Source: Candidatus Omnitrophota bacterium (lineage in GTDB: Bacteria > Omnitrophota > Gorgyraeia > Aquiviventales > Aquiviventaceae). From it: DNA of 64,000 bases. The stretch lies in contig JACQWM010000007.1 of the NCBI GenBank assembly GCA_016209275.1, positions 6,865 through 70,864 of the forward strand, in the 5' to 3' direction. Below the pieces are notes generated by a model, which had not been told where the DNA came from, did no database searches, and saw nothing but the letters and a program-made list of their open reading frames with translations. A program made the translations under genes and the position numbers. Below are positions 5,282 to 53,926 of the stretch, one piece after another. Position 1 is the first letter of the stretch. Every line of letters begins with the position of its first letter.

Positions 5282-5283
5282 TT

Positions 5284-38265: not shown

Positions 38266-38267
38266 GA

Positions 38268-38301
38268 CGATATCAGATATCGAATTCGATATCTGATATC
38301 G
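38268..38301. repeat. 34-nt perfect palindrome CGATATCAGATATCGAATTCGATATCTGATATCG (GATATCAGATAT family)
   Basis: Read directly. It lies between convergent stops of elp3 (38265) and the ferredoxin gene (38305). Confidence 0.88.
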
Positions 38302-38304
38302 CTT

Positions 38305-40003: not shown

Positions 40004-41137
40004 ATGGCAATAGTGACCCTCCTTGGTTTGGTGGGAATAGTCCTCATCCTTCAGCGCCATCCCGCCACACATCGCCTCTTCAAGTGGCTGCCGACTCCGC
40101 TGTGGTGCTATGCCCTGCCGATGATGGCGACGACGCTCGGATGGCTGCCACGGCACCATCCTTCCTATCCGCTCTTGACCACGCTCGTGTTGCCGTTTGC
40201 GCTGGGATTGCTGCTGCTAGGCGTTGATGTCCCGGCGATCGCGCGCGTGGGCTGGCGGGCGGTCGCGGCGACGCTCCTCGGCAGTGTGAGTATCGTCCTG
40301 GGTGCGCCGCTGATGGGATGGCTCCTGCGCGCGCATCTGCCGGCTGGCGCATGGACTGGGGTGGGGACGCTCGCGGCGACGTGGACCGGCGGCAGCATGA
40401 ACCTCTTGGCGGTGCGCACGATTGTCGGCACGCCTGAGGCGATCTTCACGGTCCTCATCATCGTCGATGCGCTCATCGCCTACAGCTGGATGATCGTGCT
40501 GATGGCCGCCAGCGGTCTTCAGCAGCCGCTGGATCGTTGGTTGCGGGCCGCGCAGGCCACGTCCTCGGAGTCCCTCCCTCTCGCCGGGCCTCCCTCTCGG
40601 ATGTGGCCTGCACCTCCCGCGGCAATCATCGTCGCAATCGGGCTGACAACATCCGCGATTCTGGTTGGACGGATGCTCCCCACGACTCAGATGATTAGCT
40701 CCGCCAGCGGCTGGGTGGTATTGCTGGTGACGACGTTTGCGCTGGGCGCCTCATTCATTGCACCGATTCGACGGTTAGGCCCCGCAGCGACCTCGGTGGG
40801 CATGCCGTGTTTGTATCTAGTACTCGCCGGCATGGGAGCGCAAGCCAGCCTCTTGGCGCTGTGGGCGGCGCCGATCTGGGTCGCGTTTGGCGTCGGTGTC
40901 GCGATGTTTCACGGGGTGGTCATGCTGCTGGGCGGATGGCTGCTGCGGATTCCGCTGGGCGTGCTGGCAACGGCCAGCCAAGCGAACTTAGGGGGAGTGG
41001 CGTCCACCCCGATCGTGGGCGCGGTGTATCGTCAGGAATTGGCCGCCGTGGGGTTGTTGCTGGCGGTGGGGCTCAATGGGATCGGCACGTATCTCGGCCT
41101 CTGCTCCGCCTGGCTCGCCCGCCTTCTTCTAAGGTAG
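40004..41137 (+). CDS. polytopic membrane protein (DUF819-like)
   Basis: About 10 TM helices. The N-terminus (LFKWLPTPLWCYALPMM) resembles the DUF819 family. Low certainty on the family. Confidence 0.45.
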   Translation: MAIVTLLGLVGIVLILQRHPATHRLFKWLPTPLWCYALPMMATTLGWLPRHHPSYPLLTTLVLPFALGLLLLGVDVPAIARVGWRAVAATLLGSVSIVLGAPLMGWLLRAHLPAGAWTGVGTLAATWTGGSMNLLAVRTIVGTPEAIFTVLIIVDALIAYSWMIVLMAASGLQQPLDRWLRAAQATSSESLPLAGPPSRMWPAPPAAIIVAIGLTTSAILVGRMLPTTQMISSASGWVVLLVTTFALGASFIAPIRRLGPAATSVGMPCLYLVLAGMGAQASLLALWAAPIWVAFGVGVAMFHGVVMLLGGWLLRIPLGVLATASQANLGGVASTPIVGAVYRQELAAVGLLLAVGLNGIGTYLGLCSAWLARLLLR

Positions 41138-41767
41138 ATGCCGGAAGACGCCGACGACTTTGCCGAGGATCGAGAGCGGCTGCTGCTTCGTCACGAGGAT
41201 CGGCTCCATGCTGGGATGCTCCGGCTGCAGCCGAATCTGATCGTCTTCTTTAAAGAACCGCTTGACCGTCGCCTCATCGCCTAAGAGGGCGACGGCGATT
41301 TCGCCATTGTCCACCGTCGGCTGCTGGCGCACGATCACAAAATCTCCCTCCAAAATCCCGGCGTTAATCATGCTGTCGCCCTTGACCTTCAGGGCAAAAT
41401 GCGCCGGCGCTTCAGCAGCCGCGGTCGTCGTCTTCCCGATCCAGCTGCCGTCGACCACCAGATGGCCTTCCACGTTCTGCTGGGCTAAGACGGGTTCACC
41501 CGCCCGCACGCGCCCGACGATCGGCACCCAGAGGGCTTGTTCAAAGGGTGCCACGATATCCAGCAAGCTGATGCTGCGCGCGCGCGGTTCGCGTTTCAAA
41601 AATCCTTTTTTCGCAATGGCATCAAGGTGCGTGGTCACGCCGCGCAGGCTCTTAATCCCCATCGACTTGCCGATCTCACGGATCGTCGGCGGATAGCCCC
41701 GCTGCCTGATCCAGCCGCGGATCGTCTCCAGCACCGTATGTTGTCGCTTGGTGAGTTGCTTTGCCAT
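41129..41767 (-). CDS. lexA: LexA repressor
   Basis: N-terminal winged HTH and C-terminal S24 peptidase with the Ala-Gly cleavage region and Ser/Lys dyad (GDSMINAGI...VKRF). Confidence 0.88.
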   Translation of the reverse strand: MAKQLTKRQHTVLETIRGWIRQRGYPPTIREIGKSMGIKSLRGVTTHLDAIAKKGFLKREPRARSISLLDIVAPFEQALWVPIVGRVRAGEPVLAQQNVEGHLVVDGSWIGKTTTAAAEAPAHFALKVKGDSMINAGILEGDFVIVRQQPTVDNGEIAVALLGDEATVKRFFKEDDQIRLQPEHPSMEPILVTKQQPLSILGKVVGVFRHLP

Positions 41768-41776: not shown

Positions 41777-41868
41777 CGATATCAGATATGATTGAGGCTT
41801 TTGATATCTGATATGGCCTCATCACGAGCGATATCAGATATGAAAAGGGCATTTCATATCTGATATCG
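41777..41868. repeat. two adjacent GATATCAGATAT-family hairpins in the lexA 5' region
   Basis: 41777-41816 is cgatatcagatatga(ttgaggcttt)tgatatctgatatgg (imperfect). 41829-41868 is cgatatcagatatgaaaagggcatttcatatctgatatcg (one central mismatch). The first starts 9 nt upstream of the lexA ATG (41767). Confidence 0.85.
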
Positions 41869-41892: not shown

Positions 41893-42636
41893 CTAGATTT
41901 CAAGACCCTTGAGCGTGCCGACGACAGAGCGGAGTTGATCGCGCATGGCGGCCAACTGCTCATCGGACAAGGCGGCTTCAAATAATTTTTGCATGAGGGT
42001 GACTGCGTTCCGCAGCGATCCGGTCGCTTCCCGCAGGCGGCGCCGCTGAAACTGCCGCTCGCTGACCTGGCAGAATAATTGGCTCATGCGGATGGCCGTC
42101 GCCGTATCCGTTGGCACATTGTGCAGCGCGTTGCCGTACGCGAAGAGGGCTTTCTCTGCGTCGCCGGCGACCTCAAAACCGTTGCCGAGCCGCTGCCAAT
42201 ACTCAAACCCCACGCGCGGCTCGGCAAACCGGATGTCATGATCCGGAAGCACGTCAATCCCCCAGGCGTTGAGGATCGGATAACTGAACAGGTGGAGGCT
42301 CAGCATCACCGGCTGGCCGTTGCGAAACACCAGCACCGCGGCCTTGGTCGTCCGGCCCTTCATCCGAGTTGACACAGCCGCGAAGTCGTCAATCGAATGC
42401 AGCTCCTGGTCGTCGACGCGCACGATGATGTCATCGGGCCGCACGTCGGCGAGCGCGGCTTGCGAGTTCTCATCGACGCTGACCACGCGAACACCAACGG
42501 GGCTGTCGGCCACCACCACCCCGCGGAAGACTGACGGCAACTGGCCGGCTTCGCTAGTGAGACAGTGAGAGAGTGAGAGAGTGAGTAAGGGAATGCTGAC
42601 GGTAGCCCGCATGAATCTCCACCAGATCTGTTCCAT
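41893..42636 (-). CDS. secreted PDZ-domain protein with a C-terminal helical (TPR-like) region
   Basis: Signal peptide, PDZ-like segment (GVVVADSPVGVRVVSVDENSQAALADVRPDDIIVRVD) and a helical C-terminus. Last gene of the Bat-like block. Confidence 0.55.
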   Translation of the reverse strand: MEQIWWRFMRATVSIPLLTLSLSHCLTSEAGQLPSVFRGVVVADSPVGVRVVSVDENSQAALADVRPDDIIVRVDDQELHSIDDFAAVSTRMKGRTTKAAVLVFRNGQPVMLSLHLFSYPILNAWGIDVLPDHDIRFAEPRVGFEYWQRLGNGFEVAGDAEKALFAYGNALHNVPTDTATAIRMSQLFCQVSERQFQRRRLREATGSLRNAVTLMQKLFEAALSDEQLAAMRDQLRSVVGTLKGLEI

Positions 42637-42680: not shown

Positions 42681-45281
42681 TCACAGCATTGTTCCGCCGC
42701 GAAGGGCGATGTCAACGAGCAGCGCGACAATCGCCAGCGGCAGCCACCAGTGGAACATCGGCGCCGTCGTGGTCACCGGAGCGGTCAGCGGGACAAAGGC
42801 GCGATCCGGCGCATTGTAGACGCCGTGGGTTCCGCCGGAAAGCGAGCGCAGCAAGCGTTCTTCGGGTGGCTGGCCGGTGATTTCGCCCTCGGCCGTCGGC
42901 GCCCCGACGCGGATCCAGCGCTTTGTTTCCACCGAAATCTGCCGCTGCTCCGCCGCCGCCTCAGGGGAGGCGATGGTCGAATCAAGCCGCAGCTGATGCC
43001 AGCCTCCAGGCACCTGCTCCAAGGAGGCCTGCCAGCGCCAAGCCCCATGTTGAACGAGGGGGAGAGGGATTTCGCCCGAGCCGTCGCCGGCAAGCAACCG
43101 CGCCTTAGGATCGGTCAGCGCGCCTTCAATGACCAGGTGAGGCGCCGATCCGGTATCATCAACCCACGTGAAGAGTTCCTCGCTCATCCGCGGCCGCATC
43201 GCCCACCGCGCGATGTGCGCCCATGTCGCCTCATAGCCGGGCCAGCGGACCCACTCGGGCGACCAGCGACTGTGCGCATCCGACAGAAACGACACCACCC
43301 GCCCTTTGCCTCGCATCCATCGCGCCAGCAGCGGATCGTCCCCCTTCGCCAAGGCTTCGGGGGACAGGTCCCCCTCGCCGCCGTTGATCGTCAGATCCAC
43401 GCGGGCCTCGGGCTTGGCCGTCGCGGTCAGATAGCCGCGCAGCGCCGGCCACTCCGGAACCTCGGCGAACCAATCCGAGGAGGGCGCGCGCTGCGGACGG
43501 AAATTCCCCTCGGCAAACGGCAGGCGGTCGAGCATCTGCTGGGTATCCCGCGCGAGCAGATGCGGCAGCTCCTCCAGCGAATTCATCTGATAAAACCTGC
43601 CACCGGTGCTGCGGGAGAGGTACTGCAAGTAGTCGGTGTTGATGAACGCCGAGCCGATGCCGATGGTGCTGATCGTGATGCGCTCCTTCTGAAACGCCTG
43701 CAGCATCGTGGCGTAGGACTGCCGCAACTCCGCAAACGGCGTGTTGCCGTCGGAGAGAAGAATGATGTGCTTGATGGTCGCCCCGGTCGCCTCCAGGCGA
43801 GTGGCCGCCGCAGCCAACGCCGGGTACACATCGGTGCCGCCGGTCGCGCGCAGCTTCACCAAGGTGTCCACGAGCGACGCGGTCACCCCTCCGGCCGGCT
43901 GCACCTCGGCCACCACATACGGTTTCGTATCGAACGCCAGCATCCCCACGAGGTCCTCCGGGGAGAGCTGCTTGATGAGGGCCACCGCCGCGCGCTTCGT
44001 GGCGGCGATGCGCGGGCCGAACATGGATTGCGATCGGTCGATCAAGAGGATGACGCAGATGCGCCGCTTGGCTTCACGCAGGCCTTTGGGATCAAAGCGC
44101 ACCGGCAGCAGCTCATCGAGGGGCGAGGCGGTGGCGATTTCATGCGCGAGATCGCCGCCTAAGCCCACCATCAGCAGCCCGCCGCCGAGCTCCACAGAGC
44201 GCCGCAGCTCATCGACTTGGGCCGGGCTCAGTGCGCTCTTGGGCAGATTGTCCAGGAGGACCGCATCGGCGTTGCGCAGCCGATCGGCCGAAAGATCCGC
44301 GGGGCGCATAACGCTGACATCCATCTGCCGTTGCTTCAAGACGGCGGCCAGCGGCGATGGCGCCGAGGGATGCTCGGTGACTAGGATGAGCTGCGGCGGC
44401 CCCTCGATTTCCGTATAGGCCTGCCGCTGCTCGTCCACCCCATCGGATGGAATCCGCAGATGCACGGTCAGCGCCATGGTGCCGCGCTGAATCGCCGGAA
44501 CGGTCACCGTCGCCACCTGCCAGCCGCTCCGCAGGCGCATCGCCTGCTGTTTCACGGTGATACCCTGCAGGGCGATCGCCGCCTGGCCGTCTTTCATCGT
44601 CTGCGCCGCATTGAAGATGACCAGCCGCACCGGGATCGCCCCCCCGCGCTGAACGCTCGGCGGCACGAGCAGATCATCCCACACCGTCTTCGTCTCATTG
44701 AACACCGGAACCGTCACGGGAAACACGCTCAGGCCGCGCCCACGGAGTGCCGCCACGACCATCGCAGTGCTCCCCATCGTTTCGTGCCCATCGCTGAAGA
44801 GCACGAGGCTCGTCCGCCCGGGCGTGCTAGATGCTGCCAGCGCAGACAGCAAGGCCCCCTCAAGATCGGTGCGATCATCCCCCACCGAGGCCTGGCGGAG
44901 CAGCCGCTCAATGACTGAGGGATCGGTCAGCGCCTCGGTGCCCCAGTCCGCGACGGAGGCGGTATCCCGGCCGAACGCCATGACGGCGCGGGAGAGCCGC
45001 GAGGGACGGATCGCTTCCAGCGACGCCAGCCGCCGGGCGATCCACGCGCGTTGGCGCGGATCGATGCTGGCGGATTGGTCCACCAGGTACAGGATCTGGC
45101 GGGGGGCCTCATGGCTCCACCGGCGAGGAAACGCCCACAGCGCTGCGCACACCATGGCGATGGCGAGCAGCCGAGCGCCCACGGCGATGGCTTTGCGGGC
45201 ACCCGCCAGCGGAATCTTCTGACTGAGCCACAGCACCAATCCCATGAGTGCGAGCGAGATCGCCAGATGAGAAAAGTTCAT
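42681..45281 (-). CDS. membrane-anchored double-VWA-domain protein (BatB-like)
   Basis: N-terminal two-TM BatA-type anchor and two MIDAS motifs (DQSAS and DRSQS). 866 aa. ATGA overlap with the upstream BatA-like gene. Confidence 0.75.
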   Translation of the reverse strand: MNFSHLAISLALMGLVLWLSQKIPLAGARKAIAVGARLLAIAMVCAALWAFPRRWSHEAPRQILYLVDQSASIDPRQRAWIARRLASLEAIRPSRLSRAVMAFGRDTASVADWGTEALTDPSVIERLLRQASVGDDRTDLEGALLSALAASSTPGRTSLVLFSDGHETMGSTAMVVAALRGRGLSVFPVTVPVFNETKTVWDDLLVPPSVQRGGAIPVRLVIFNAAQTMKDGQAAIALQGITVKQQAMRLRSGWQVATVTVPAIQRGTMALTVHLRIPSDGVDEQRQAYTEIEGPPQLILVTEHPSAPSPLAAVLKQRQMDVSVMRPADLSADRLRNADAVLLDNLPKSALSPAQVDELRRSVELGGGLLMVGLGGDLAHEIATASPLDELLPVRFDPKGLREAKRRICVILLIDRSQSMFGPRIAATKRAAVALIKQLSPEDLVGMLAFDTKPYVVAEVQPAGGVTASLVDTLVKLRATGGTDVYPALAAAATRLEATGATIKHIILLSDGNTPFAELRQSYATMLQAFQKERITISTIGIGSAFINTDYLQYLSRSTGGRFYQMNSLEELPHLLARDTQQMLDRLPFAEGNFRPQRAPSSDWFAEVPEWPALRGYLTATAKPEARVDLTINGGEGDLSPEALAKGDDPLLARWMRGKGRVVSFLSDAHSRWSPEWVRWPGYEATWAHIARWAMRPRMSEELFTWVDDTGSAPHLVIEGALTDPKARLLAGDGSGEIPLPLVQHGAWRWQASLEQVPGGWHQLRLDSTIASPEAAAEQRQISVETKRWIRVGAPTAEGEITGQPPEERLLRSLSGGTHGVYNAPDRAFVPLTAPVTTTAPMFHWWLPLAIVALLVDIALRGGTML

Positions 45282-46975
45282 GTGCTGTGTATTTCGGATG
45301 GTGGATGGTGGATGGTGGATTGCGCTTTACTGGAATCCGCAATCGAAAATCGAAAATCCAAAATTCGTTGTGATGTTCGCCTCGCATACAGCCACCATTC
45401 GATCACGAGCAGCGCTAAGACGGCCAGCAAGAGCCATGGGGCCAGCGGAAGCATCGTCGGCTGCGCCGCCGCCGACGGCGGACGCTCTTCAGCCAGCGGC
45501 CGCCATGTCGAGGTCCGGTCCATCAGATTCGACTCGAGCGCGTTGAAGAGCCCTGTGGCGTGCGCGGCGTCTCCCATCAGCCACCGCAGGCTGTTGAACA
45601 CGACGACAATGGCCGTCGTGGTGTCGTGGCTGATCGAGGGATCAAAGCGCAGGGTCACGCGGCGAACCCCCTGGGGCGCATCGGCCAATACCACGGGAAT
45701 TTTCCGGCCGTTGCGCACCGCGGAGATGACGGCAACAGCGCTGGTGTCGGCCGTGGCTGCCGGATTCAACGCCACTGACACGACATCGACCGGCGCCACA
45801 TACGCGCCCAGGGGATGGTCATTGGCCACCAGCCAATGCACAGGAGTGGACTGACGTGGCGCGTTGGCTGAGAGGTCGAATCGCAGCACGGCGGACGGTT
45901 GCCAACCGCTCATCACCTCGCGGTCGGTGATCAGGACGAATGGCGCATCGGCCGCAGGCGGTTCGGTGCTCCATTGGAGCGCTGCGCATGCGGTGAGCCA
46001 CTCCCTGAGGCCGCGCTGCAGTTCCGGGGAGGCCACGCGCAAGACCACGGGCAAGGTCGCGTGCTGCGGGATGGTCAGATGCGCCGCATTATCGAGGCTG
46101 AGCGCATCGGGCTGGGCTTGCAGTTGCACCTCAATGTCCCCGGCGGCGTTCGCGGGCAGGCTCAGCGCTTCCACGCGGCGCGCCCCGGCCTCCAGCCGAA
46201 GGCTGGATTGCGCCAATGGCGCGCCGCCCTGCAGGACGCGCACCGTCACCGTTGAGGGTTCGGAAGAAAAATTGTGGATCGTCGCCGCCAGGTGCGCCCC
46301 GTCCGCCGCGCACAGCGGCCCCCGCGCTTCGACACCTGCCAGCGCGACATTGGCCAGTGTTTCTCCCACGCCGAGCCATTGCACGCGGGCCGGCAAACCT
46401 TCAGGCCGCGGCTCATCGGTTGCGACGATGATCTCATCAGGCGGCTTCGGCAGCATCGCGCTTCCCAGGCGCACCGCGGAGGCCAAATTGCCGCCCAGGG
46501 CCGCTGTGCGCTGCTCATCGAGGGCGCGATGGATCGTGGCCGCATCGCTTCTCGGATGCGCCACGGCCGGCTGCAGCGGCGCTGTCGCCACCAGCATCAC
46601 CTCATCAGCCGCAGACCGCTCCATTAATCGCCGCCGAAGCGCGGTGCGAGCGCGATCGAATGCAGCGCTGCCGCTGCGCCGCGCGGCCATGCTGGCCGAT
46701 GTATCGAGAATCGCCAGGACGGTGCGTCCGCCTGGATGGCGAAGGGCTGGCCGAGCCAGGGCGAGGGCTAAGAGGATCGCGCCGGCGAGCTGCATCCAGA
46801 AAAGCGGGTTGACCACCAGATGCGTCCGTCGACGGGCAGCGCGGCGCAGCAGGTGCTCAAACGGGATCAGGCTGGGAATCTGAAGGCGCCGCCGGCTGGC
46901 CGCCAGCCGCCACAACCAGAGCACCACCGGCACGCTGAGCAATCCGAGAAAACCTAGAGGAGAAAGAAATGACAT
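45278..46975 (-). CDS. BatA-like VWA-domain protein (aerotolerance-regulator N-terminal domain)
   Basis: N-terminus MSFLSPLGFLGLLSVPVVLWLW...LVVNPLFWMQL fits the BatA N-terminal TM motif. MIDAS DTSAS. 565 aa. Confidence 0.75.
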   Translation of the reverse strand: MSFLSPLGFLGLLSVPVVLWLWRLAASRRRLQIPSLIPFEHLLRRAARRRTHLVVNPLFWMQLAGAILLALALARPALRHPGGRTVLAILDTSASMAARRSGSAAFDRARTALRRRLMERSAADEVMLVATAPLQPAVAHPRSDAATIHRALDEQRTAALGGNLASAVRLGSAMLPKPPDEIIVATDEPRPEGLPARVQWLGVGETLANVALAGVEARGPLCAADGAHLAATIHNFSSEPSTVTVRVLQGGAPLAQSSLRLEAGARRVEALSLPANAAGDIEVQLQAQPDALSLDNAAHLTIPQHATLPVVLRVASPELQRGLREWLTACAALQWSTEPPAADAPFVLITDREVMSGWQPSAVLRFDLSANAPRQSTPVHWLVANDHPLGAYVAPVDVVSVALNPAATADTSAVAVISAVRNGRKIPVVLADAPQGVRRVTLRFDPSISHDTTTAIVVVFNSLRWLMGDAAHATGLFNALESNLMDRTSTWRPLAEERPPSAAAQPTMLPLAPWLLLAVLALLVIEWWLYARRTSQRILDFRFSIADSSKAQSTIHHPPSEIHST

Positions 46976-46985
46976 CTATGGAAAT

Positions 46986-47116
46986 TATCAATAACCAAGC
47001 ACCAATAACCAAACAATGACCAATGTTCCAATGACCGAATTACCAAACGATGTGGTCATTGGTGATTCAGTCATTGGGAATTGTTTGGTGATTGGAATTT
47101 GGTAATTGGTTATTGG
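46986..47116. repeat. CCAA-heptamer inverted-array element, copy B (inside the Bat-like operon)
   Basis: ataaCCAAgcaCCAAtaaCCAAacaatgaCCAAtgttCCAAtgaccgaattaCCAAacg | atgtggtcaTTGGtgattcagtcaTTGGgaattgtTTGGtgaTTGGaatTTGGtaaTTGGttaTTGG. It lies between the GT2/ligase stop (47067) and the batA-like start (46975). Confidence 0.75.
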
Positions 47117-48959
47117 CAGCTAATCCGTGAATTGAACCGAGCCACAGCCAGAAGCCCAGATTGGTGTGCGACGAATAGAGCGCTGATTCAAACACGCCGA
47201 CCACCAGAAACGCCACCACCCCGCAGCCTAAGGCGGCGGCCAGCAGCGCCGTCTCTCGATCGCTCGAACGGAGCAGCCGCCGAAACGCCCGGCCTGTCTG
47301 CGCGATGATGCCGGCAAACGCGATCAACCCGATCGCTCCTAATTCGGCAGCCAGATGCAGATAATGGTTATGCGCGTACGCCGAATGGATGGGATCCCAG
47401 GACAACTTATACCGGTCATAATTCTTAATGAACGTGTTGACGCCCACACCGATGACCGGATGCGCGGCGAACATCCGCCAGGCGGCGGCCCAGATTTGCG
47501 GCCGCTCCGGCTGAATCAGCGCATCCCACCACGACGGTTGGCTCGCGGCCCAGGCGCGCACAGGAGCCGGCAACAACAGCAGCAGAAGGACTCCGGCCGC
47601 CGCCAGTCCGGCTAACAGAGGCCAGGCTCGCCGCACGACACAGAACACCAGCAGGCTCGCGGCCACCGCCGTGACCCCGGGACGCGAGTAGCTCAACACC
47701 AGCGCGCACGATAGCAGAGCCACGACCAACCACCGCCACCATCGACGCACCGCATCCCCCGCCGTGATGGCCGCCACCACGCAGAGGGGAAAGACGCTGG
47801 CCGCAAAGATGCCGAAATCATTCGCGTGGCCGAACGTCGCGGTCAGCCGCGGCAGGCCCCCCGGGGCATGGCCGGCCGCGCGGCCCCGCAGCGGATCAAC
47901 ACCGAAGGCGAGTTGCAGCAGCCCATCGATGGAGACGATCGCCGCGGACAGCACGACGGCGGATAACACGGCGCGCAGGCGGGACGGCCGGTTGAGCGTC
48001 TCGGCCGCCACCCAACAGATCAGGACCGCTTGCGCGATTTTGAAGAGTCCTTGCACGCTCGCGCGAAGCGCCACCGAATGCCACATCGACACCACCCCGG
48101 CCGCGAACCACACGCAGAACCATACGTTGACCGCGAGCTGCGGAGGCCGCAGGCTGCGCGTTCGCAGCTTGCCCAGCACCCAGGAGGTGACGGCGATTCC
48201 CACCGCAAGGTTCTTCAGCGCAGGGGCGAGCGGCCAAAACAGCACGGCCAGCCAGATCGAGGCAAACGTCACCTCATCAGCGGTGAGGCGCAGCCAGCGC
48301 TTGCGCAGCAACAGCCGCACGCAGCCCCACCCATCGCGCAGAGGTGCGAGCTTGCTGCGCCCGATGCGGGAGGCATAGCCGATGGGGATTTCCTCCGCGC
48401 GCAGGTTCGCCACGGCGAACGCTTCGACTTTGATCTCGTGCGAAAACGGAATGCCGGAATCTGCGAGATGCAATTGCTTGAGCGCCGAGGCGCGGATCGC
48501 CCACATGCCGGAGAGCGAATCGCGCAGCGACAAGCCGAAGCACCAATTCGCCAGCAGGGTGAGGACCCCATTGCCCACGCGGCTGACCCACGACATGGCC
48601 CGCGGCTGCTGCAGCGGGAAGCGCGAGCCGTTGACGAAATCCAGCTGCCGCCGGGCCAGCGTCTGCACCAGCGGCTCGATGGCGGAGAGCGGATACGTGC
48701 CGTCGCCGTCAAGCTTCACGATGACGTCGCCCGTCGCTTCCCGCAACCCGCGGCGGCAGGCCTCCCCGTAGCCGGGCCGCGTCTCGGCCGCCACCCGAAC
48801 GCCCGCAGCGCTGGCGACGGCGGCGGTCTCATCGGTGGAGCCGTTATCGACAACCACCACCTCATCGACGCTGCGGGGCATCTTCGGCAGCATCTGCCGC
48901 AAGCCATCGGCCTCATTCAGGCACGGAATAATCACGCTCACCCGCAGGCCATCAATCAT
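47067..48959 (-). CDS. fusion of a family-2 glycosyltransferase (DPM1-like) and an O-antigen-ligase/Wzy-like polytopic domain
   Basis: N-terminal GT2 motifs (VSVIIPCLNE, VVVDNGSTD, DGDG). C-terminal ~400 aa with ≥10 TM helices typical of O-antigen ligase-type proteins. 4-nt overlap with DUF58. Confidence 0.65.
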   Translation of the reverse strand: MIDGLRVSVIIPCLNEADGLRQMLPKMPRSVDEVVVVDNGSTDETAAVASAAGVRVAAETRPGYGEACRRGLREATGDVIVKLDGDGTYPLSAIEPLVQTLARRQLDFVNGSRFPLQQPRAMSWVSRVGNGVLTLLANWCFGLSLRDSLSGMWAIRASALKQLHLADSGIPFSHEIKVEAFAVANLRAEEIPIGYASRIGRSKLAPLRDGWGCVRLLLRKRWLRLTADEVTFASIWLAVLFWPLAPALKNLAVGIAVTSWVLGKLRTRSLRPPQLAVNVWFCVWFAAGVVSMWHSVALRASVQGLFKIAQAVLICWVAAETLNRPSRLRAVLSAVVLSAAIVSIDGLLQLAFGVDPLRGRAAGHAPGGLPRLTATFGHANDFGIFAASVFPLCVVAAITAGDAVRRWWRWLVVALLSCALVLSYSRPGVTAVAASLLVFCVVRRAWPLLAGLAAAGVLLLLLLPAPVRAWAASQPSWWDALIQPERPQIWAAAWRMFAAHPVIGVGVNTFIKNYDRYKLSWDPIHSAYAHNHYLHLAAELGAIGLIAFAGIIAQTGRAFRRLLRSSDRETALLAAALGCGVVAFLVVGVFESALYSSHTNLGFWLWLGSIHGLAANNQLPNSNHQTIPND

Positions 48960-49861
48960 TCAAGAAAGCCTCGGTGTGGCAGCACGTTCGTCACAAACGA
49001 GGCGAGAGATTCATCCAGCCGGTGCTGCGCAAAGGCGATGCCGTGCCGCTTGCAAAATCGCGCGAGCAATTCGTTGTGGCCAGTGACCGCCTGCTCAAGC
49101 TCGGCTGTGCTGTACGCGAGCTGATGCGTGTCGCCGGTTTCGGCGTCGACGACCATGCCCGCGCGCGAGAGCTGTGCGGGATGCAATTCTTGCGGGCTGA
49201 TGACCTGGATCACTTTCACCTCGAGATTGCGGATGGCCAGCAGGTGCAGCGCTTGGAAAAATTCCGCCGGGCGCACCATGCCGTCGGTGACCACGATGGC
49301 CTGCCCGCCGTGCATGCGCAGACTGATCGCCGCCCGGCGCACCCACTCGGCCAGCGCCACCGGCCCTCCCAGGACGGCCGCATCGGCGGCTCCCGCCATG
49401 CGCGAGAGCTCCGCCCGCTGATGGAACCAGGGGCTCGAGGCGATTGGCCCAGGCTTGATCCAACTGAAGCGCACGTAATGGCCGTCGCTGATCCCGATGT
49501 AGCCGAGGCTCACCGCTAGGTGGCGCGCGCGGATGAATTTCTCGGCGGTCGGCAACCCCATGGACGGGGTGGCATCCACCAAAATCTCCACCGAGAGGGC
49601 AATTTCCTCTTTATACGTTTTGACGAACAGTTTTTCCAAGCGGGCGTAGAGGCTCCAGTCGATGGCGCGGATGTCATCGCCGGCGTAATACGGCGCATAG
49701 TCGGCAAATTCGATCGAGGAGCCGCGCCGGCTGACGGTGAAGCGCCCCCCGAGCCGGTGCCCTGCCCGCACGGACTTGATGGAGAGCTCCAATGTGTCGA
49801 GCCGATTGATATAGGCTGGCGTGAGCCAATCTATCGTCATGGAGACGCAGCGGTTCCGCAC
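48956..49861 (-). CDS. DUF58-family protein (MoxR partner)
   Basis: DUF58 core (GSSIEFADYAPYYAGDDIRAIDW) and its characteristic position downstream of moxR. Confidence 0.75.
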   Translation of the reverse strand: MRNRCVSMTIDWLTPAYINRLDTLELSIKSVRAGHRLGGRFTVSRRGSSIEFADYAPYYAGDDIRAIDWSLYARLEKLFVKTYKEEIALSVEILVDATPSMGLPTAEKFIRARHLAVSLGYIGISDGHYVRFSWIKPGPIASSPWFHQRAELSRMAGAADAAVLGGPVALAEWVRRAAISLRMHGGQAIVVTDGMVRPAEFFQALHLLAIRNLEVKVIQVISPQELHPAQLSRAGMVVDAETGDTHQLAYSTAELEQAVTGHNELLARFCKRHGIAFAQHRLDESLASFVTNVLPHRGFLE

Positions 49862-49906
49862 ACCAGGTAGCGCAGGTTTAAACCTGCGCTACCTGGTGTG
49901 CGCTAC

Positions 49907-50920
49907 TCACTTTCTCACTAACTCTCGTTTGGTAGGCGACAGGAGTTCTGTCAAGATGTCCAGCGCTGAACGCTTCTCGGCTTCGGCCTCGAAGGAGAGG
50001 ATGACGCGGTGGGAGAGCGCTGGCAGGGCGACCGCGTCCGCATCCTCGAAGCTCACGTTGACGCGGCCGGCCATGAGTGCTGAGACTTTGGCCCCCATGA
50101 GGATGGCCTGCGCGCCGCGCGGGGAAGCCCCATACCGCAACCAGCGATTCGCCGCGTGGGCGGCATCCTCGTCATTCGGCCGCGTGGCGGTGACCAGCTT
50201 CACGATGTACGCTTCCACTTCGCGCGCCACCAGGACCTCGCGCACCAGCCGGCGGGCGTTCATGATCCACTCCTGCGCCTTCGCCTGCGGCAGCACCGGT
50301 TTGGCCGAGACGATCTCGGCCGTGGTCGTCTGCTGCAGGATGCGCGAAAGATCCTCTGACGACGGGTAGCCGATGAACAGTTTAAAGAGAAAACGGTCGA
50401 GCTGTGCTTCGGGCAGCGGAAATGTCCCTTCCATTTCAATGGGATTCTGTGTGGCCATGACGAAAAACGGCTCCTCCAGCTTCATCGTGGCACCGGCGAT
50501 GGACACTTGCCGCTCTTCCATGGCCTCGAGGAGTGCCGACTGCGTCTTGGGTGTGGCCCGGTTGATTTCATCGGCGAGCAGGATGTGCGTGAACACCGGG
50601 CCTTTCGTAAACTCAAACGCCTTATGCCCGTCGCGTTCAACGACCAATTGCGTGCCGAGGATATCTGAGGGCATCAAATCCGGCGTGCACTGGATGCGCT
50701 TAAACGACAGGCCGAGCACGCCGGCCACCGACTTGGCCAGCAGCGTTTTGCCTAACCCTGGCACCCCTTCCAGCAGAATGTGGCCGCCGGCAAACAGCGC
50801 AATCAGCAACCGCTCGACCGCCTCCTGCTGGCCGACGACGACGCGGGAGAGCTCCTCGCGCAACGCGGCAAACGTCTCCCGAAACTCCTCCGGCTGCACC
50901 GCTAATTTCTGCGTGGTCAT
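49907..50920 (-). CDS. moxR: MoxR-family AAA+ ATPase
   Basis: ATG at 50920 (MTTQKLAV) verified. Walker A GVPGLGKT, Walker B ILLADEINRA, sensor motifs. The 119-aa ORF-track N-terminal extension is rejected as unrelated low-complexity sequence. Confidence 0.85.
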   Translation of the reverse strand: MTTQKLAVQPEEFRETFAALREELSRVVVGQQEAVERLLIALFAGGHILLEGVPGLGKTLLAKSVAGVLGLSFKRIQCTPDLMPSDILGTQLVVERDGHKAFEFTKGPVFTHILLADEINRATPKTQSALLEAMEERQVSIAGATMKLEEPFFVMATQNPIEMEGTFPLPEAQLDRFLFKLFIGYPSSEDLSRILQQTTTAEIVSAKPVLPQAKAQEWIMNARRLVREVLVAREVEAYIVKLVTATRPNDEDAAHAANRWLRYGASPRGAQAILMGAKVSALMAGRVNVSFEDADAVALPALSHRVILSFEAEAEKRSALDILTELLSPTKRELVRK

Positions 50921-50936
50921 GGCTTCCTTTCCTAAA

Positions 50937-52439
50937 TTATGGGTTGCTCCGACGGTGGAGCTGGTCGAAGATCGGTTGATATTCCGGCGGGACGGATTGG
51001 CGCGTGGTCGCACGCTCCTCCAGAGGCTGATCAGAGAGCTGGGCGTCTTCCGGCTGCGCTTTTGGCGCGTCTTTCGCAACCGCGCCGGAGGGCGTGCCCG
51101 TACCGCCGCTGGCTCGTCCCTGCTTTGTCGGCGCCGTATCCGTCTGCAACTGGATCGGCACCGGTTTGCCGGTTGAAGGATCAATCGGTGTGGCTGCGCC
51201 GTAGAGATTTGGGTCGGTGCCCTGGCCGGCGTTTGGCATCTGTTGCTCTTGGTCAAGTTTGGCTTGCAATTGTTCAAGCTGCCCGGAAACTTGCTGCAGC
51301 AAGGCGTGGATGTCCGCTTTCATGTCGGCGGCGCCGGCCTGCTCAGAGGTCGTGCCTGGCTGCTGTCCTGCTTCGCCCGAGCCTTGGTGGGGCTTCGCAG
51401 CAGCGAGCCCTTGAGAGGGTTGCTTGCCCTGCTGGCCTGGCTTGGTCTTGCTGCCGGCAGCCTGTTGCGCGGCTTGCCGCTGCCCCTGTTGCTGACCCTG
51501 TTGTTGACCCTGCTGCTGAGCTGACTGCTGCCCTTGCTGTTGGCCTTGTGTTTGCTGCTGGCCGGCTTGTTGTTGAGCGCCTTTTCCCTGCTGCTGGGTG
51601 CTTTGTTGTGATGAGTTTCCGGAATCCTTTTTGTTGTTGGACTGATTTTGATTTTGGTTTTGGTTTTGGTTTTGGTTTTGATTCTGGCTCTGATTTTGGT
51701 TTTGGTTCTGATTCTGCGCCCCCTGGTTTCCTGCGCAGTCACACGATGATTGTTGTTGCCCGCCACCCGACATGCTCATGCCGGCCCGCCCCGGCTCACT
51801 GTTCTGGTGTTGGCGGGCCGGGGGCGGCGCCCCCCCCTGCTGCATGTCGGAAGCACTCTTCGAGGATGACGGCGCTTCCGGCGCCTTCGGCTTCTGCTCG
51901 TCGGGCTGTGGTTGCTGAGGTGAAGCTCCGGGTGGTACGGCAGGAGGTTTCGATGCTTGGGTGAATTGACGCAACACCGTTTTCGGCGCCGGCCAGATGA
52001 GGAGCAGAATCAGCAGCGCTGAAAGCGCGGTGGCCCATCCATCAACAGGACGCGGAAGGCGGATTCGATCGGTGCGCACGCGCTGCGCGAGGTCTTCGAG
52101 CAGCATCGGGTAGAGGGCGGGCGGCTCAGGGGCGGCGGAGAATTGTTCGGCGGTTAGCAAGCGCTGCTGCAATCCGAGGGTGGCGTCAAGCCACTGCGCG
52201 CCGGCCCGCGAGGCGCGCCATCGCCGCCGGCTCCGCCACGCCAGCCCGAGGGCGAGGAGGACCAGCAGCAGCGCCGCCGCGGCGACGCTGACCGAGAGCC
52301 GAACACCGGCAAGCCGCAGCCGCCAGGCGAGGGCCATTGCCATCGCCCCGCCCAACCCGGCCAGCACGCCGGTGTTGGCGAACAGCGCTTGGCGATACCG
52401 GGCAGCGAAGCGGCGCGTCTGCCTGAGGGGATCACTCAT
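50937..52439 (-). CDS. two-TM membrane protein with a long Q/N/G-rich low-complexity domain (QNQNQN, QQQGQQQ)
   Basis: Two N-terminal hydrophobic helices, a third TM around 150, then >200 aa of Gln/Asn/Gly/Ser/Pro low complexity including (QN)n encoded by hexanucleotide repeats. It is the first gene of the Bat-like block, 17 nt upstream of moxR. Confidence 0.5.
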   Translation of the reverse strand: MSDPLRQTRRFAARYRQALFANTGVLAGLGGAMAMALAWRLRLAGVRLSVSVAAAALLLVLLALGLAWRSRRRWRASRAGAQWLDATLGLQQRLLTAEQFSAAPEPPALYPMLLEDLAQRVRTDRIRLPRPVDGWATALSALLILLLIWPAPKTVLRQFTQASKPPAVPPGASPQQPQPDEQKPKAPEAPSSSKSASDMQQGGAPPPARQHQNSEPGRAGMSMSGGGQQQSSCDCAGNQGAQNQNQNQNQSQNQNQNQNQNQNQNQSNNKKDSGNSSQQSTQQQGKGAQQQAGQQQTQGQQQGQQSAQQQGQQQGQQQGQRQAAQQAAGSKTKPGQQGKQPSQGLAAAKPHQGSGEAGQQPGTTSEQAGAADMKADIHALLQQVSGQLEQLQAKLDQEQQMPNAGQGTDPNLYGAATPIDPSTGKPVPIQLQTDTAPTKQGRASGGTGTPSGAVAKDAPKAQPEDAQLSDQPLEERATTRQSVPPEYQPIFDQLHRRSNP

Positions 52440-52471: not shown

Positions 52472-52837
52472 TTACGATGCCGAGAGGGCGCGCGCGTCAA
52501 AATGGCCGTCGATCTGGCGGCCGTCGCGCACCGTCTCATCCACCCACACGCGCGTCAACTGACCGGACCACCCAGCACCAACGGTGCTCGGGCCATGACC
52601 CAGCTGATCGGCCAGGGTCTTGCGCTCATGCCGCTCATTGATTTTGTCCATCTGTTTCTCAACGACGAAGCCGGCGAGCAAGCCAACGAGCCCGCCGAGG
52701 GGTGCCCCGATGCCTGGGGCGATGGCGGAGCCGGCAATGGCGCCGGCCGTATAGCCTGCCTGTGATGGCGGAAGGCTGGCGCACCCGGCGACCAAGACTC
52801 CGGCCGTCGCCATCGCAAATAATCGACGCCTGCGCAT
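52472..52837 (-). CDS. glycine-zipper lipoprotein
   Basis: Lipobox LVAGC, then a Gly-zipper (GAIAGSAIAPGIGAPLGGLVGLLAG). Confidence 0.5.
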   Translation of the reverse strand: MRRRRLFAMATAGVLVAGCASLPPSQAGYTAGAIAGSAIAPGIGAPLGGLVGLLAGFVVEKQMDKINERHERKTLADQLGHGPSTVGAGWSGQLTRVWVDETVRDGRQIDGHFDARALSAS

Positions 52838-52898
52838 AAAACCATGCTACTCTAACTCGTGCCTCTTGACAAGCGACGAGCTGGTTGAAAGAATAGAG

Positions 52899-52938
52899 CG
52901 ATATCAGATATGAAATGGCCATTTCATATCTGATATCG
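52899..52938. repeat. 40-nt perfect palindrome identical to 9892-9931 (GATATCAGATAT family)
   Basis: Read directly. It ends 4 nt before the ATG (52943) of the gldA-like ABC gene, in a divergent intergenic region. Confidence 0.9.
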
Positions 52939-52942
52939 CCTT

Positions 52943-53926
52943 ATGACGCTTCCCATTGAAGTCGCCAACCTCACGAAGCGCTACGACAACGTCACTGCGC
53001 TCTCCGGCATCTCCTTTAGCGTCCACCCCGGCGAGATCATGGGGTTCTTAGGACCTAACGGTGCGGGCAAAACCACCACACTGCGCATCCTGACCGGCAT
53101 CATCGCGCCGACCGCCGGCACGGTCCGCATCGATGGGCTTGATGTGACGGCCCATCCGCTGGAGGTCCGCCGGCTCATCGGCTACCTGCCGGAAAACGTG
53201 GCCCTCTACCATGAGCTGCGGGTTGAAGAGTACCTTTCGTATCGCGCCGCCATCAAAGGCGTGCCGAAGACCGCGCGGCGATCGCGGCTTGAGGCCGCGA
53301 TGGCGCAATGCGATATCGTGGATATGCGTCGGCGGCTCATCGGCCGGCTCTCCAAAGGCTACCGCCAACGGGTTGCCTTAGCGGATTGCCTCTTAGCGCA
53401 ACCGAAAATCTTGATTCTGGATGAGCCCACCGTTGGGCTGGACCCCCACCAAATCCGCCAAACTCGAGAACTCATTACGACCCTCGGACGCTCCGCCACC
53501 GTCTTGCTCTCCACGCATATCCTGCCGGAGGTGGAGATGACCTGCCAGCGGGTCGCGATCATCCATCAGGGACGCATCATCGCCGTTGATACCCCGGCGT
53601 CGCTTCGCCAGCGCCTGCAGGGCAACCCCATGATCCGCGTCCAACTGCGCGGCAACGCCGGCGATATCGAAACCGCCTTGAAGCAGCTGCCCGGCGTGGC
53701 ACGGGTCATGCCCAAAGGCCCGGCGAACGGATCCGCCGCCTTCGAAGTGGAACCCTCACCCGGCGTTGACGTCCGTGAGGCCATCTTTCACCTCGCGGTG
53801 GCGCGCCAGTGGACGCTGCAAGAACTCGCGCAAACGCAGATCTCGCTCGAAGATGTCTTCATCCACCTCACCACCAAGGAAGCGGAACCCTCAGACTCCC
53901 CCCTGACTTACTCACTCACTCGCTAA
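52943..53926 (+). CDS. ABC transporter ATP-binding protein (GldA-like, ABC-2 type)
   Basis: Walker A GPNGAGKTT, signature LSKGYRQR, Walker B ILILDEPTVGLD. Confidence 0.85.
   Translation: MTLPIEVANLTKRYDNVTALSGISFSVHPGEIMGFLGPNGAGKTTTLRILTGIIAPTAGTVRIDGLDVTAHPLEVRRLIGYLPENVALYHELRVEEYLSYRAAIKGVPKTARRSRLEAAMAQCDIVDMRRRLIGRLSKGYRQRVALADCLLAQPKILILDEPTVGLDPHQIRQTRELITTLGRSATVLLSTHILPEVEMTCQRVAIIHQGRIIAVDTPASLRQRLQGNPMIRVQLRGNAGDIETALKQLPGVARVMPKGPANGSAAFEVEPSPGVDVREAIFHLAVARQWTLQELAQTQISLEDVFIHLTTKEAEPSDSPLTYSLTR

Follow-up and report, generated by a model that had tools for sequence, protein, structure and literature searches.

Layout of the gene cluster

The window, i.e. the entire analysed stretch of 64,000 nucleotides from a Candidatus Omnitrophota bacterium, harbours a gene cluster on its minus strand in which a lipoprotein, a Q-rich membrane protein (QN protein), MoxR, DUF58, a GT2+Wzy_C fusion, a CCAA hairpin, BatA-VWA, double-VWA/GATase1-like and PDZ(-TPR) follow each other in this order. 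The features of the region are the following (palindromic elements without strand):

52898 to 52944: REP-like 40-nt palindrome CGATATCAGATATGAAATGGCCATTTCATATCTGATATCG at the upstream cluster border
52844 to 52872, minus strand: sigma-70-like promoter match TTGTCA-17-TAGCAT immediately upstream of the first cluster gene (consensus match only)
52472 to 52837, minus strand: lipoprotein, 121 aa, lipobox VAGC, glycine-zipper motif; conserved first module gene
50937 to 52439, minus strand: QN protein, 500 aa, low-complexity membrane protein; ORF with no family match
49907 to 50920, minus strand: MoxR-type AAA+ ATPase, 337 aa; Pfam AAA_3 (E 6.4e-63) and AAA_lid_2
49857 to 49902: perfect 46-nt palindrome with centre TTTAAA in the MoxR/DUF58 spacer, read from the sequence
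48956 to 49861, minus strand: DUF58 protein, VWA-like, DxTxS motif; Pfam DUF58 (E 2.2e-17)
47067 to 48959, minus strand: GT2+Wzy_C fusion, 630 aa; Pfam GT2 (6.7e-22) and Wzy_C (2.1e-23)
46982 to 47115: CCAA-type periodic palindromic element between the fusion gene and BatA, a REP/MITE-like long imperfect hairpin
45278 to 46975, minus strand: BatA-type membrane protein, 565 aa; Pfam BatA (2.8e-8) and VWA_2 (7e-9), TIGR02226
42681 to 45281, minus strand: double-VWA membrane protein, 866 aa; Pfam two VWA domains and GATase1_like (PF07090)
41893 to 42636, minus strand: secreted PDZ protein, 247 aa; Pfam PDZ_2 (5.6e-8); conserved last module gene
41777 to 41868: two REP-like palindromes at the downstream cluster border, between the PDZ gene and lexA
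41129 to 41767, minus strand: LexA, syntenic neighbour

ORFs, Pfam and NCBIfam bear out the gene order given in an earlier note on this DNA, with every gene on the minus strand. The anatomical reading of that note was correct as well, the cluster being of the Bat/cmd kind (MoxR-DUF58-BatA/VWA) and harbouring a GT2+O-antigen-ligase-like gene in its middle. The extent it had assigned (42681 to 52439) does contain cluster genes but is too narrow, as the lipoprotein gene has to be added at the head and the PDZ gene at the end. The genes are co-directional and their spacers short. Inspection of the junction sequences does not agree with the claim that most junctions are ATGA overlaps: only DUF58/GT2, where the DUF58 stop overlaps the ATG of the fusion gene, and BatA/double-VWA, where the start of the 866-aa gene overlaps the BatA stop, are of this type, and the remaining spacers amount to 16, 45-66, 91 and 44 nt. 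The promoter match sits in a 105-nt divergent spacer which the cluster shares with an ABC-transporter operon; sigma-70-like sites in the region number four compared to 2.2 expected. Further copies of the CGATATCAGATATGAAATGGCCATTTCATATCTGATATCG palindrome are located at 9888-9931, 41777-41817 and 41828-41868. In 19 of 22 complete loci the module is followed by LexA, for which no functional role in the module is evident.

Proteins of the core module

Apart from the fusion, the cluster corresponds to a core module of seven genes conserved in Omnitrophota, a Bat/cmd-type MoxR-DUF58-BatA/VWA envelope module. Its lipoprotein matches Pfam Gly-zipper_Omp with an E value of 1.2e-4, which is under the gathering score, and has an orthologue in 32 of the 33 related loci with sufficient upstream sequence. 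The same count holds for the QN protein, which the earlier note had regarded as an addition to a Bat-type cluster and which is instead a conserved core gene. Its N-terminus forms a helical membrane hairpin; the other parts are a third hydrophobic helix, a Q/G/S/P-rich linker of ~210 aa and, at the C-terminus, ~110 conserved aa. The description as a two-TM protein is roughly right, as there are two strongly hydrophobic segments and in addition a weaker one. The label “prion-like Q/N-rich” was overstated, since the orthologues are Q/G/S/P-rich with 9-19% Q and no more than 5% N. In the window's protein, the (NQ)n run coincides with a tandem repeat of 6 nt at 51646-51707, and its Asn-rich run derives from this array. 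Searches against Pfam, NCBIfam and PADLOC returned no match, and the protein lies outside every described family. Its linker (about residues 163-370) is disordered in the AlphaFold model and, as suggested by the charge distribution, periplasmic. The QN protein may represent a Q-rich disordered membrane tether of the module.

MoxR carries the Walker A motif GVPGLGKT and the Walker B motif LLADE and shares 67-77% identity with its orthologues in related loci. The listed GTG start of DUF58 falls within the 46-nt palindrome, and alignments of orthologues start at residues 7-12; translation probably begins at the ATG at 49840. In the BatA-type protein, the BatA_N domain contributes two TM segments and an Arg-rich loop, and the MIDAS motif DxSxS (D91, S93, S95) of the VWA domain is invariant in the orthologue alignment. 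The protein further has a conserved region of ~300 aa and ends in a TM helix; ~100 orthologues show 33-57% identity. In the 866-aa protein, which has TM helices at both termini, the MIDAS motifs read DQSAS and DRSQS, and orthologues align over the full length with 46-57% identity. The last gene, present in all 29 loci whose sequence continues for 1 kb or more downstream of the 866-aa gene, had been called PDZ/TPR-like: the PDZ domain is confirmed, but TPR matches stay below threshold and the helical C-terminal half is weakly TPR-like.

Comparison with known MoxR/VWA systems

The module resembles BatI of Bacteroides fragilis and spirochaete bat loci (Tang 1999, cited in PMC5700661; PMC3557215) in its MRP-type MoxR, its DUF58 protein, a membrane VWA protein with the BatA N-terminal domain and a TPR-type end, and it shares co-directional genes with annotated Bat examples (L079, L080, L082). 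In contrast to these, DUF58 and BatA are not separated by a gene for BatD or DUF4381, and Pfam finds no BatD or BatE domain in the window's cluster. Furthermore, its BatA-type protein comprises 565 aa compared to about 330, its second VWA protein is the 866-aa double-VWA + GATase1_like protein, and lipoprotein, Q-rich tether and PDZ protein are extra conserved genes. With tblastn, similarity to the annotated Bat examples is found for MoxR and DUF58 only and for none of the other proteins. An aerotolerance role of Bat is itself doubtful because deletion of bat in Leptospira produced no oxidative phenotype (PMC3557215).

The cmdA-D operon of Rhizobium leguminosarum (RL3499-RL3502) is likewise a four-gene core led by a MoxR of the MRP subfamily, and its mutants are reported in PMC5700661 and PMC3893208 to show defects in envelope integrity and cell morphology; the Omnitrophota module has three more conserved genes. 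Since this phenotype fits an envelope role, we suggest such a role by analogy for the Omnitrophota module. On plasmid pPL62-3 of Planctomyces sp. SH-PL62, DUF58 is followed by a 730-aa BatA-domain protein, an 818-aa VWA protein and large hypothetical proteins, resembling our cluster in the order and sizes of the large BatA-domain and VWA proteins. Yet, these two proteins show no significant tblastn similarity to those of the window, and no counterparts of lipoprotein, QN protein or PDZ protein were identified at that locus.

The GT2+Wzy_C fusion

The fusion gene is intact. Its GT2 domain spans residues 8-161 and Wzy_C residues 411-549, and the protein gives an AglJ-like NCBIfam match (8e-38). 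The AlphaFold model (pLDDT 94) retrieves with Foldseek ArnC (9bhc, 4e-10), DPMS (5mlz) and WaaL (7tpg, 4e-8, TM 0.66). Judged from this model, the protein combines a GT2 domain of the polyprenyl-phosphate glycosyltransferase type, alike in sequence and fold to ArnC, GtrB and dolichyl-phosphate-mannose synthase, with a membrane domain of ~9-10 helices which is alike to WaaL (7tpg) and Pfam Wzy_C. Unlike in these enzymes, both predicted activities reside in one chain. This type is rare, with two 50%-identity clusters among the best 150 matches from a search of 1.84 billion representatives; most relatives among these 150 are stand-alone GT2 (~230 aa) or Wzy_C proteins (~410 aa).

Homology to the relatives P0002-P0007 stops in the alignment near residue 614, and the final ~16 codons lie in the CCAA element. 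The GC3 value of 0.80 compares to 0.70-0.82 in neighbouring genes. Identity to fusion homologues (50-55%) is close to that of neighbouring orthologues (ccsA 56%, 866-aa VWA protein 46-57%), which fits relocation within the clade. No MoxR, DUF58 or VWA gene is found beside the fusion relatives in any of eight other contexts: after resB-ccsA (L001), in an LPS/EPS cluster with an additional fusion to GT9 (L002), after htrA (L004-6), between opposite-strand genes (L023), after msrA (L083), as a Wzy_C gene without fusion, accompanied by two GT9 genes and DegT (L084), in L085, and in the order GT2-fusion-GT9-GT9 (L086). Wzy_C-domain relatives associate with GT9/LPS-core-type genes.

Palindromic elements and assembly support

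The CCAA element folds with a dG of -53.9 (z -5.45) and has a second copy, about 88-90% identical, at 33888-34019. Members of this family occupy the same DUF58/BatA junction in two related loci (L016, L068), both without GT gene. For the CCAA element and the GATATCAGATATG palindromes there is no Rfam match, and no associated transposase was identified. Like enterobacterial REP/BIME palindromes they are dispersed imperfect hairpins between co-directional genes or at operon borders; in contrast to those, they are made of short periodic sub-repeats and show no sequence relation to known REPs. Of two independent Logan assemblies, L089 breaks within the CCAA element and L090 ends at the MoxR/DUF58 palindrome; as these assemblies stop at the flanking hairpins, the DUF58/GT junction is known from one MAG contig.

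The DUF58/BatA junction in related loci

Genome and metagenome scans yielded 71 related Omnitrophota loci, 66 of which (59 non-redundant) span DUF58 and BatA. BatA directly follows DUF58 in 65 of the 66, with a spacer of 0-443 nt that in most measures 0-40 nt and holds no remnant, and tblastn (E<=1e-5) detects no GT2 or Wzy_C homologue within ~10 kb in any of the 66. The flanks are collinear in relatives, with FKBP, CDP-OH transferase and ABC/GldG/DUF4340 on one side, and LexA followed on the opposite side by a membrane protein of 377 aa. A neighbour-joining tree of MoxR, DUF58 and the 866-aa VWA protein (1454 columns) places the window behind several GT-less outgroups, and because of this nested position a gain of the fusion is the parsimonious reading. 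The junction is permissive for insertions: it carries Fic-HTH, ParE and Macro in L031 and DUF4172-Fic in L072, two loci whose homology starts only ~55 nt upstream of BatA, and long palindromic elements in about one third of lineages. P0106, the BatA relative nearest to that of the window (57% identity), is encoded on a contig of 3 kb. Upstream of its BatA gene, a gene fragment of 64 aa stops at a distance of 91 nt, and the window has a spacer of equal length. Because of this fragment and the equal spacer, the insertion is possibly shared with the nearest lineage, which counts against a gain in the window only.

Origin and possible role of the fusion gene

We consider it probable that the locus consists of the conserved seven-gene module plus one extra gene, the fusion, which would have entered the DUF58/BatA junction only in the lineage of the window, as a passenger without required tie to MoxR/VWA. 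Going by family and fold, the cytoplasmic GT2 domain would load a sugar onto polyprenyl phosphate and the WaaL-like polytopic domain would hand a glycan over to an acceptor in the periplasm. LPS core or some other envelope glycan is the likeliest acceptor, since the fusion relatives reside in GT9-containing clusters. The donors differ, WaaL using Und-PP-linked ones and ArnC-type enzymes producing Und-P-monosaccharides. As the sigma-70-like consensus scan found no promoter-like site upstream of the gene and its start codon shares nucleotides with the DUF58 stop, its expression would most likely depend on the operon transcript, which carries it along as a passenger.

That the WaaL/PglL-like fusion was instead functionally recruited in the window's lineage is unlikely. 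It might then glycosylate a periplasmic module protein (the Ser/Pro/Gln-rich QN linker or a VWA protein) or build a glycan to be anchored or sensed by the module. Protein O-oligosaccharyltransferases (PglL/PilO) aimed at low-complexity regions belong to the Wzy_C superfamily, and the predicted disorder and suggested periplasmic location of the QN linker would suit such a target; translational coupling to DUF58, the lack of an own promoter-like site in the scan and the intactness of the gene speak for recruitment as well. Coupling and intactness would also be expected of a recruited functional partner. An envelope-glycan enzyme would not be an implausible partner, the core module being tied to envelope integrity by the cmd mutants of Rhizobium (PMC5700661). 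Against this stand the absence of co-occurrence in all 59 non-redundant related clusters and all eight other contexts, the company of GT9/LPS-core-type genes kept by Wzy_C relatives, and the unchanged QN protein and module in loci without the fusion gene; also, our literature search found no paper covering both MoxR and O-antigen ligase.

An ancestral GT2-ligase gene deleted in the other lineages is very improbable: the neat ATGA junction and native-like composition do recall an old resident, but the successive GT-less branches would call for four or more losses, each independent and precise, most relatives' spacers of 0-40 nt hold no remnant, and fusion homologues of related genomes occupy other loci. 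Least probable of all, and hardly to be expected, is a chimeric MAG contig joined via the CCAA element, even though this element is repeated in the genome and short-read assemblies break exactly there and at the MoxR/DUF58 palindrome. The 5' junction is free of repeat, synteny is regained precisely at either edge of one 1.9-kb gene, GC3 matches the neighbours, and two precise mis-joins would be needed.

The earlier note's proposal of a glycoconjugate as target of the MoxR/VWA machinery finds no support, as no related locus has the gene, its homologues lie elsewhere and unrelated cargo occurs at the junction; the comparative genomics suggested there for judging co-conservation was carried out and points to random insertion without it. 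Hence, the fusion gene looks like a passenger and less like a working partner of the MoxR/VWA module.

Organisation of the cluster

Between 41.9 and 52.8 kb the minus strand harbours a tight cluster of co-directional genes, delineated by ORFs as well as by Pfam and NCBIfam matches, with lexA being the next gene beyond the PDZ gene.

Features of the cluster (coordinates, strand, description)
52472-52837, minus: lipoprotein of 121 aa with a glycine-zipper motif
50937-52439, minus: QN, low-complexity membrane protein of 500 aa
49907-50920, minus: MoxR (Pfam AAA_3, E 6.4e-63; AAA_lid_2, 3.6e-15)
48956-49861, minus: DUF58 protein, probable start at 49840
47067-48959, minus: GT2+Wzy_C fusion of 630 aa, the inserted gene
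~46982-47115: long hairpin (CCAA element)
45278-46975, minus: BatA_N+VWA protein of 565 aa (BatA)
42681-45281, minus: protein of 866 aa carrying a pair of VWA domains and a GATase1_like domain (VWA866)
41893-42636, minus: PDZ protein of 247 aa with a weakly TPR-like tail

The genes named in an earlier note on this DNA are hereby confirmed. Compared with the coordinates given there, the cluster has an additional gene at either end, and ATGA overlaps, which were thought to form most junctions, are confined to DUF58/GT and BatA/VWA866, the other spacers measuring 16, 45-66, 91 and 44 nt. The translated MoxR contains GVPGLGKT as Walker A and LLADE as Walker B motif, and downstream of it Pfam recognises DUF58 and three VWA domains. 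A bpMoxR-type identity was dismissed as the respective Pfam match (1.8e-10) is far weaker than that to AAA_3 (6.4e-63). Neither MoxR nor DUF58 has membrane segments. The BatA-type protein matches both PF07584 and TIGR02226, and the DxSxS (MIDAS) motif is invariant in the alignment of BatA orthologues.

QN orthologues share an architecture in which the N-terminus carries positive charge and precedes a helical membrane hairpin. A conserved segment (LDxxLGLQQRLxTAxEF…PALYPLL) then leads to a further hydrophobic helix, behind which come a disordered linker of 150-300 aa, with Q, G, S, P and A as prevalent residues, and a C-terminal stretch of about 110 aa which is again conserved (…ALKAEIQxLLKEVSGEL…GTxTDPxLY…PPEYRxVFDRL). 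The predicted model of QN has low confidence (pLDDT 54) and is mostly disordered. The designation of this protein as prion-like and Q/N-rich appears too strong: Gln amounts to 9-19% in the orthologues, in which Q richness and disorder are conserved, but Asn does not exceed 5%, and the (NQ)n run of the window protein corresponds to a 6-nt tandem repeat array. The distribution of charges suggests a periplasmic location for the linker and the C-terminal region, and the same would apply to the BatA VWA domains. Low-complexity membrane proteins of the DUF4175/TIGR02302 type are neighbours of MoxR operons in Alphaproteobacteria. An assignment of QN to this family (PF13779) was rejected, as neither the N- nor the C-terminal part of the window protein produces a match at E<=1; the same holds for the orthologues (five compared with Pfam, two with NCBIfam). 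The precomputed Pfam field is empty in 12 relatives, and the QN family has no match in Pfam, NCBIfam or PADLOC.

Absence of the inserted gene from related clusters

The alignment of about 100 BatA orthologues (33-57% identity) was used to collect related loci, 16 from a set of one genome per species and 55 from JGI metagenomes, with which all proteins of the window were compared by tblastn. Throughout these loci the gene order is lipoprotein, QN, MoxR, DUF58, BatA, VWA866 and PDZ, usually followed by LexA. Where sufficient flanking sequence is available, QN and the lipoprotein are each present in 32 of 33 loci and the PDZ protein in 29 of 29, and all complete loci (22/22) are collinear. DUF58 and BatA are both present in 66 loci (59 non-redundant), with a spacer of 0-443 nt between them in 65 of the 66. 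Within about 10 kb tblastn reveals no GT2 or Wzy_C match in any of these 66 loci, a set outside which the context of the nearest BatA relative, P0106 (57% identity), lies. The annotated classical Bat operons included in the comparison lack a GT2/Wzy_C gene, too. Collinearity extends to FKBP, CDP-alcohol transferase and a divergent ABC/GldG/DUF4340 operon on one side and to LexA and a 377-aa membrane protein on the other, the sole structural difference between the window and its relatives being a single 1.9-kb gene. In a neighbour-joining tree built from MoxR, DUF58 and VWA866 the lineage of the window branches behind several successive lineages devoid of the GT gene, which renders a gain far more parsimonious than repeated loss.

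The earlier note had proposed that the MoxR/VWA machinery acts on an envelope glycoconjugate, and had suggested checking how often a GT2/Wzy fusion co-occurs with related MoxR-DUF58-VWA neighbourhoods. With an occurrence of 0/66 the gene is not co-conserved and, as judged from these sequence comparisons, does not qualify as a member of the MoxR/VWA operon; a search of the available literature collection retrieved no paper linking MoxR to an O-antigen ligase. The observation made in the note is largely right, the functional link derived from it unsupported.

The DUF58/GT junction is known from one MAG contig, on which it solely rests since independent short-read assemblies (Logan) break at the hairpins. 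One of these assemblies terminates at a perfect 46-nt palindrome within the MoxR/DUF58 spacer (49857-49902). As this palindrome contains the listed GTG start of DUF58, translation probably begins at the ATG at 49840 instead. The exact protein P0001, sought as independent support for the junctions, has no record elsewhere.

A permissive, hairpin-rich junction

The DUF58/BatA junction is a permissive site. In the related locus L031 it accommodates 3.6 kb of unrelated cargo (3190-6780) encoding a Fic-HTH protein, a small membrane protein, a ParE toxin along with its putative antitoxin and a Macro-domain protein. Copies of a small inverted repeat (4973-5024 and 6277-6350) flank its ParE-Macro portion. 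L072 is closely related to L031 and has a DUF4172-Fic gene (1-2360) immediately next to BatA; homology between the two loci sets in just about 55 nt before BatA starts. The spacer measures 100-443 nt in 22 of the 66 loci, and in about a third of the lineages the junction carries long hairpins which differ in sequence (L009, L010, L014, L028, L029, L035, L036, L041, L043, L052, L053, L058, L061, L067, L070 and L074). They are very stable, with a dG of -35 to -231, unrelated in sequence and often made of differing periodic units of 6-8 nt. Either invasion of the junction has recurred or selection favours a hairpin at this position.

In the window this position is taken by the CCAA element, whose family consists of imperfect palindromes of about 130 nt made up of periodic CCAA-containing sub-repeats and located in intra-operon spacers just upstream of start codons.

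Copies of the CCAA family
Window, 46982-47115: between the inserted gene and BatA
Window, 33888-34019: ordinary intra-operon spacer 3' of a peroxiredoxin gene
L016, 9821-10000: DUF58/BatA junction, GT gene absent
L068, 2138-2302: DUF58/BatA junction, GT gene absent

L016 and L068 belong to distantly related MAGs. The homology of the fusion to its relatives ends near residue 614, which coincides with the start of the CCAA element, its last ~16 codons being contributed by the element. An integron cassette, i.e. an ORF with a 3' hairpin, was considered and rejected, since the second copy of CCAA turned out to be an intergenic hairpin of the ordinary kind, L031 contains small repeats only, and no integrase was seen in this check. 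Known RNA families and tRNA integration sites were not found either. A very unlikely reading, prompted by the three different cargo sets found at the hairpin-marked DUF58/BatA junction, is that this site would serve specifically to capture accessory genes lacking a promoter.

The entire cluster is flanked by REP-like GATATCAGATATG palindromes. A REP-like 40-nt palindrome, CGATATCAGATATGAAATGGCCATTTCATATCTGATATCG, is dispersed in the window (9888-9931, 41777-41817, 41828-41868 and 52898-52944), with copies on either side of the MoxR cluster, and shorter relatives of it are present at 16785-16819 and 38265-38302. A second periodic palindromic family, composed of CATGAC/GTCATG units, occurs at 8020-8087 and 21034-21112. 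The window segments 29415-30184 and 31576-32276, 2161 nt apart and 74-79% identical, represent a tandem duplication which suggests two paralogous genes side by side. Periodic repeats of 21 nt (7 aa) run from 59162 to 60031 in a 420-aa ORF (58849-60111, minus strand) which Pfam does not recognise; as this ORF lies upstream of an ECF sigma factor gene (58228-58821) on the same strand, it may be a repeat-containing regulator.

Nature and expression of the inserted gene

Both halves of the fusion can be assigned by sequence and predicted fold, the matches at either level being in agreement. The GT2 domain (PF00535, 6.7e-22) carries a DGD motif conserved as DxD in its homologues and matches AglJ (8e-38) and DPhHxTase (1.9e-26), falling short of the equivalog cut-off in either case. 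In the AlphaFold model of the fusion (pLDDT 94, pTM 0.88) Foldseek relates the N-terminal domain to ArnC, dolichyl-phosphate-mannose synthase, GtrB and GpgS, which characterises this half as a predicted GT-A enzyme of the polyprenyl-phosphate type. The second half matches PF04932 (Wzy_C) with 2.1e-23, above the gathering score, and its fold resembles that of the O-antigen ligase WaaL (7tpg; E 4e-8, TM 0.66, 423 columns); with nine hydrophobic segments in the fusion, it is a polytopic PF04932 domain with a predicted WaaL-like fold. The protein would thereby combine two steps: at the cytoplasmic face the GT2 half would attach a sugar to polyprenyl phosphate, while at the periplasmic face the WaaL-like half would carry out a transfer of the WaaL type. 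WaaL normally takes Und-PP-linked donors, in contrast to the product of an Und-P-sugar synthase. The putative target is most likely the LPS core or a related envelope glycan, because relatives of the fusion adjoin genes of the GT9 heptosyltransferase type.

The ATG of the fusion overlaps the DUF58 stop codon and is preceded by GAGG 10 nt upstream, inside the conserved DUF58 C-terminus. A scan of the region disclosed no promoter-like site before the inserted gene and no terminator-like site in any cluster-internal spacer, the count in the region being that expected from shuffled sequence, and the CCAA hairpin has no U-tract. Co-transcription of the inserted gene as a passenger would be the simplest reading of these sequence features. 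The CCAA hairpin might modulate the expression of the downstream BatA gene.

Relatives of the fusion

A word-indexed search of 5.8 billion proteins yielded five full-length relatives of the fusion with 50-55% identity, and an exhaustive search of 1.84 billion representatives one further fusion cluster (44%) among the best 150 matches. Most relatives are stand-alone GT2 (~230 aa) or Wzy_C (~410 aa) proteins.

Gene contexts of relatives of the fusion
L001: 3' of resB-ccsA
L002: large polysaccharide cluster, fusion additionally joined to a GT9 domain
L004-6: 3' of htrA
L023: amid genes on the opposite strand
L083: 3' of msrA
L084: unfused Wzy_C gene ahead of two GT9 genes and DegT
L085: further context of a fusion-family relative
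L086: GT2, fusion, GT9, GT9, then more glycosyltransferases

None of these eight contexts contains MoxR, DUF58 or BatA/VWA genes. The window itself possesses resB-ccsA (61976-64000, minus strand), genes for system II cytochrome c biogenesis, at a distance of about 13 kb from the inserted gene. Their identity to the pair which directly precedes the fusion homologue in L001 (3107-6617) is 56-72%, and this arrangement hints at a local move of the inserted gene within this chromosome region. Composition shows no sign of a recent transfer from a distant donor, as GC3 of the inserted gene (0.80) equals that of its neighbours. Given this match, and since the 50-55% identity to its homologues falls within the range of the surrounding orthologues, the data fit a resident accessory gene of the clade which would have changed its position rather than a recent distant import.

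Many proteins of 710-770 aa (among them P0245, P0246, P0253 and P0256) possess an ArnC/DPMS-like GT2 domain of the same type as N-terminal part, while their C-terminal part of about 480 aa has no Pfam match at E<=1e-5. By sequence, this GT2 module appears to have been fused repeatedly to differing C-terminal partners.

The core module in comparison with known systems

The Omnitrophota cluster is a lineage-specific variant of the MoxR/DUF58/BatA type. In common with Bat operons it has co-directional genes for MoxR, DUF58 and a BatA-type protein. Unlike these, it lacks the BatB-E/BatD complement: Pfam detects no BatD, DUF4381 or SH3 match, and TPR is found only below threshold in the PDZ protein. 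In annotated plasmids a search with BatA gave no match, and one with DUF58 recovered classical Bat operons and one planctomycete locus only. Gene sizes and order of the planctomycete-type locus are nearer to those of the window cluster, yet no sequence similarity to the window is detectable beyond MoxR and DUF58. Anti-phage defence, i.e. a MoxR-VWA ternary conflict system, was discarded, as PADLOC returned marginal P-loop matches only.

The module may be envisaged as an envelope-spanning complex in which the lipoprotein, the disordered tether, the periplasmic MIDAS domains and the PDZ protein would be joined, and which cytoplasmic MoxR/DUF58 would remodel via the Arg-rich BatA_N loop. The placement proposed for BatA matches that of Borrelia BB0173, whose VWA domain was shown to be periplasmic (PMC5700661). 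This model agrees with the phenotype reported for the cmdA-D operon of Rhizobium, which concerns envelope integrity (PMC5700661, PMC3893208), and is independent of the aerotolerance role, which is doubtful as bat deletion in Leptospira caused no oxidative phenotype (PMC3557215).

Interpretation and significance

The inserted gene is most likely an idiosyncratic passenger in the conserved MoxR/VWA envelope module of Omnitrophota, placed at a junction which is permissive and rich in hairpins. According to the alignment its protein is intact and conserved over its full length, including the DxD motif. Functional recruitment of the fusion in this single lineage is unlikely. Very unlikely, in our estimation, is a co-option of the ArnC-like/WaaL-like fusion by the MoxR/VWA module, e.g. 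as a protein O-glycosyltransferase modifying the disordered, probably periplasmic, Ser/Pro/Gln-rich linker of QN. Were it true, a glycosylated constituent of the envelope would be the target of the MoxR/VWA machine.

MoxR-DUF58-VWA (Bat/cmd) clusters occur widely, and are to our knowledge still without a mechanism. For these clusters, regarding the inserted gene as a passenger removes a tempting lead, namely a built-in tie to glycan synthesis. What is left is a cleaner Omnitrophota module of seven collinear genes, among them those for an uncharacterised Q-rich membrane protein, a glycine-zipper lipoprotein and a PDZ protein, and this gene set suggests a complex spanning the cell envelope. In addition, a rare, putative single-chain ArnC-like/WaaL-like enzyme has been documented. 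The durable by-products of the analysis are, hence, an uncharacterised family of Q-rich tethers, this rare fusion and a recurrently invaded junction which, by repeatedly taking up palindromes and foreign genes inside an operon, bears on how operons tolerate and express passengers.
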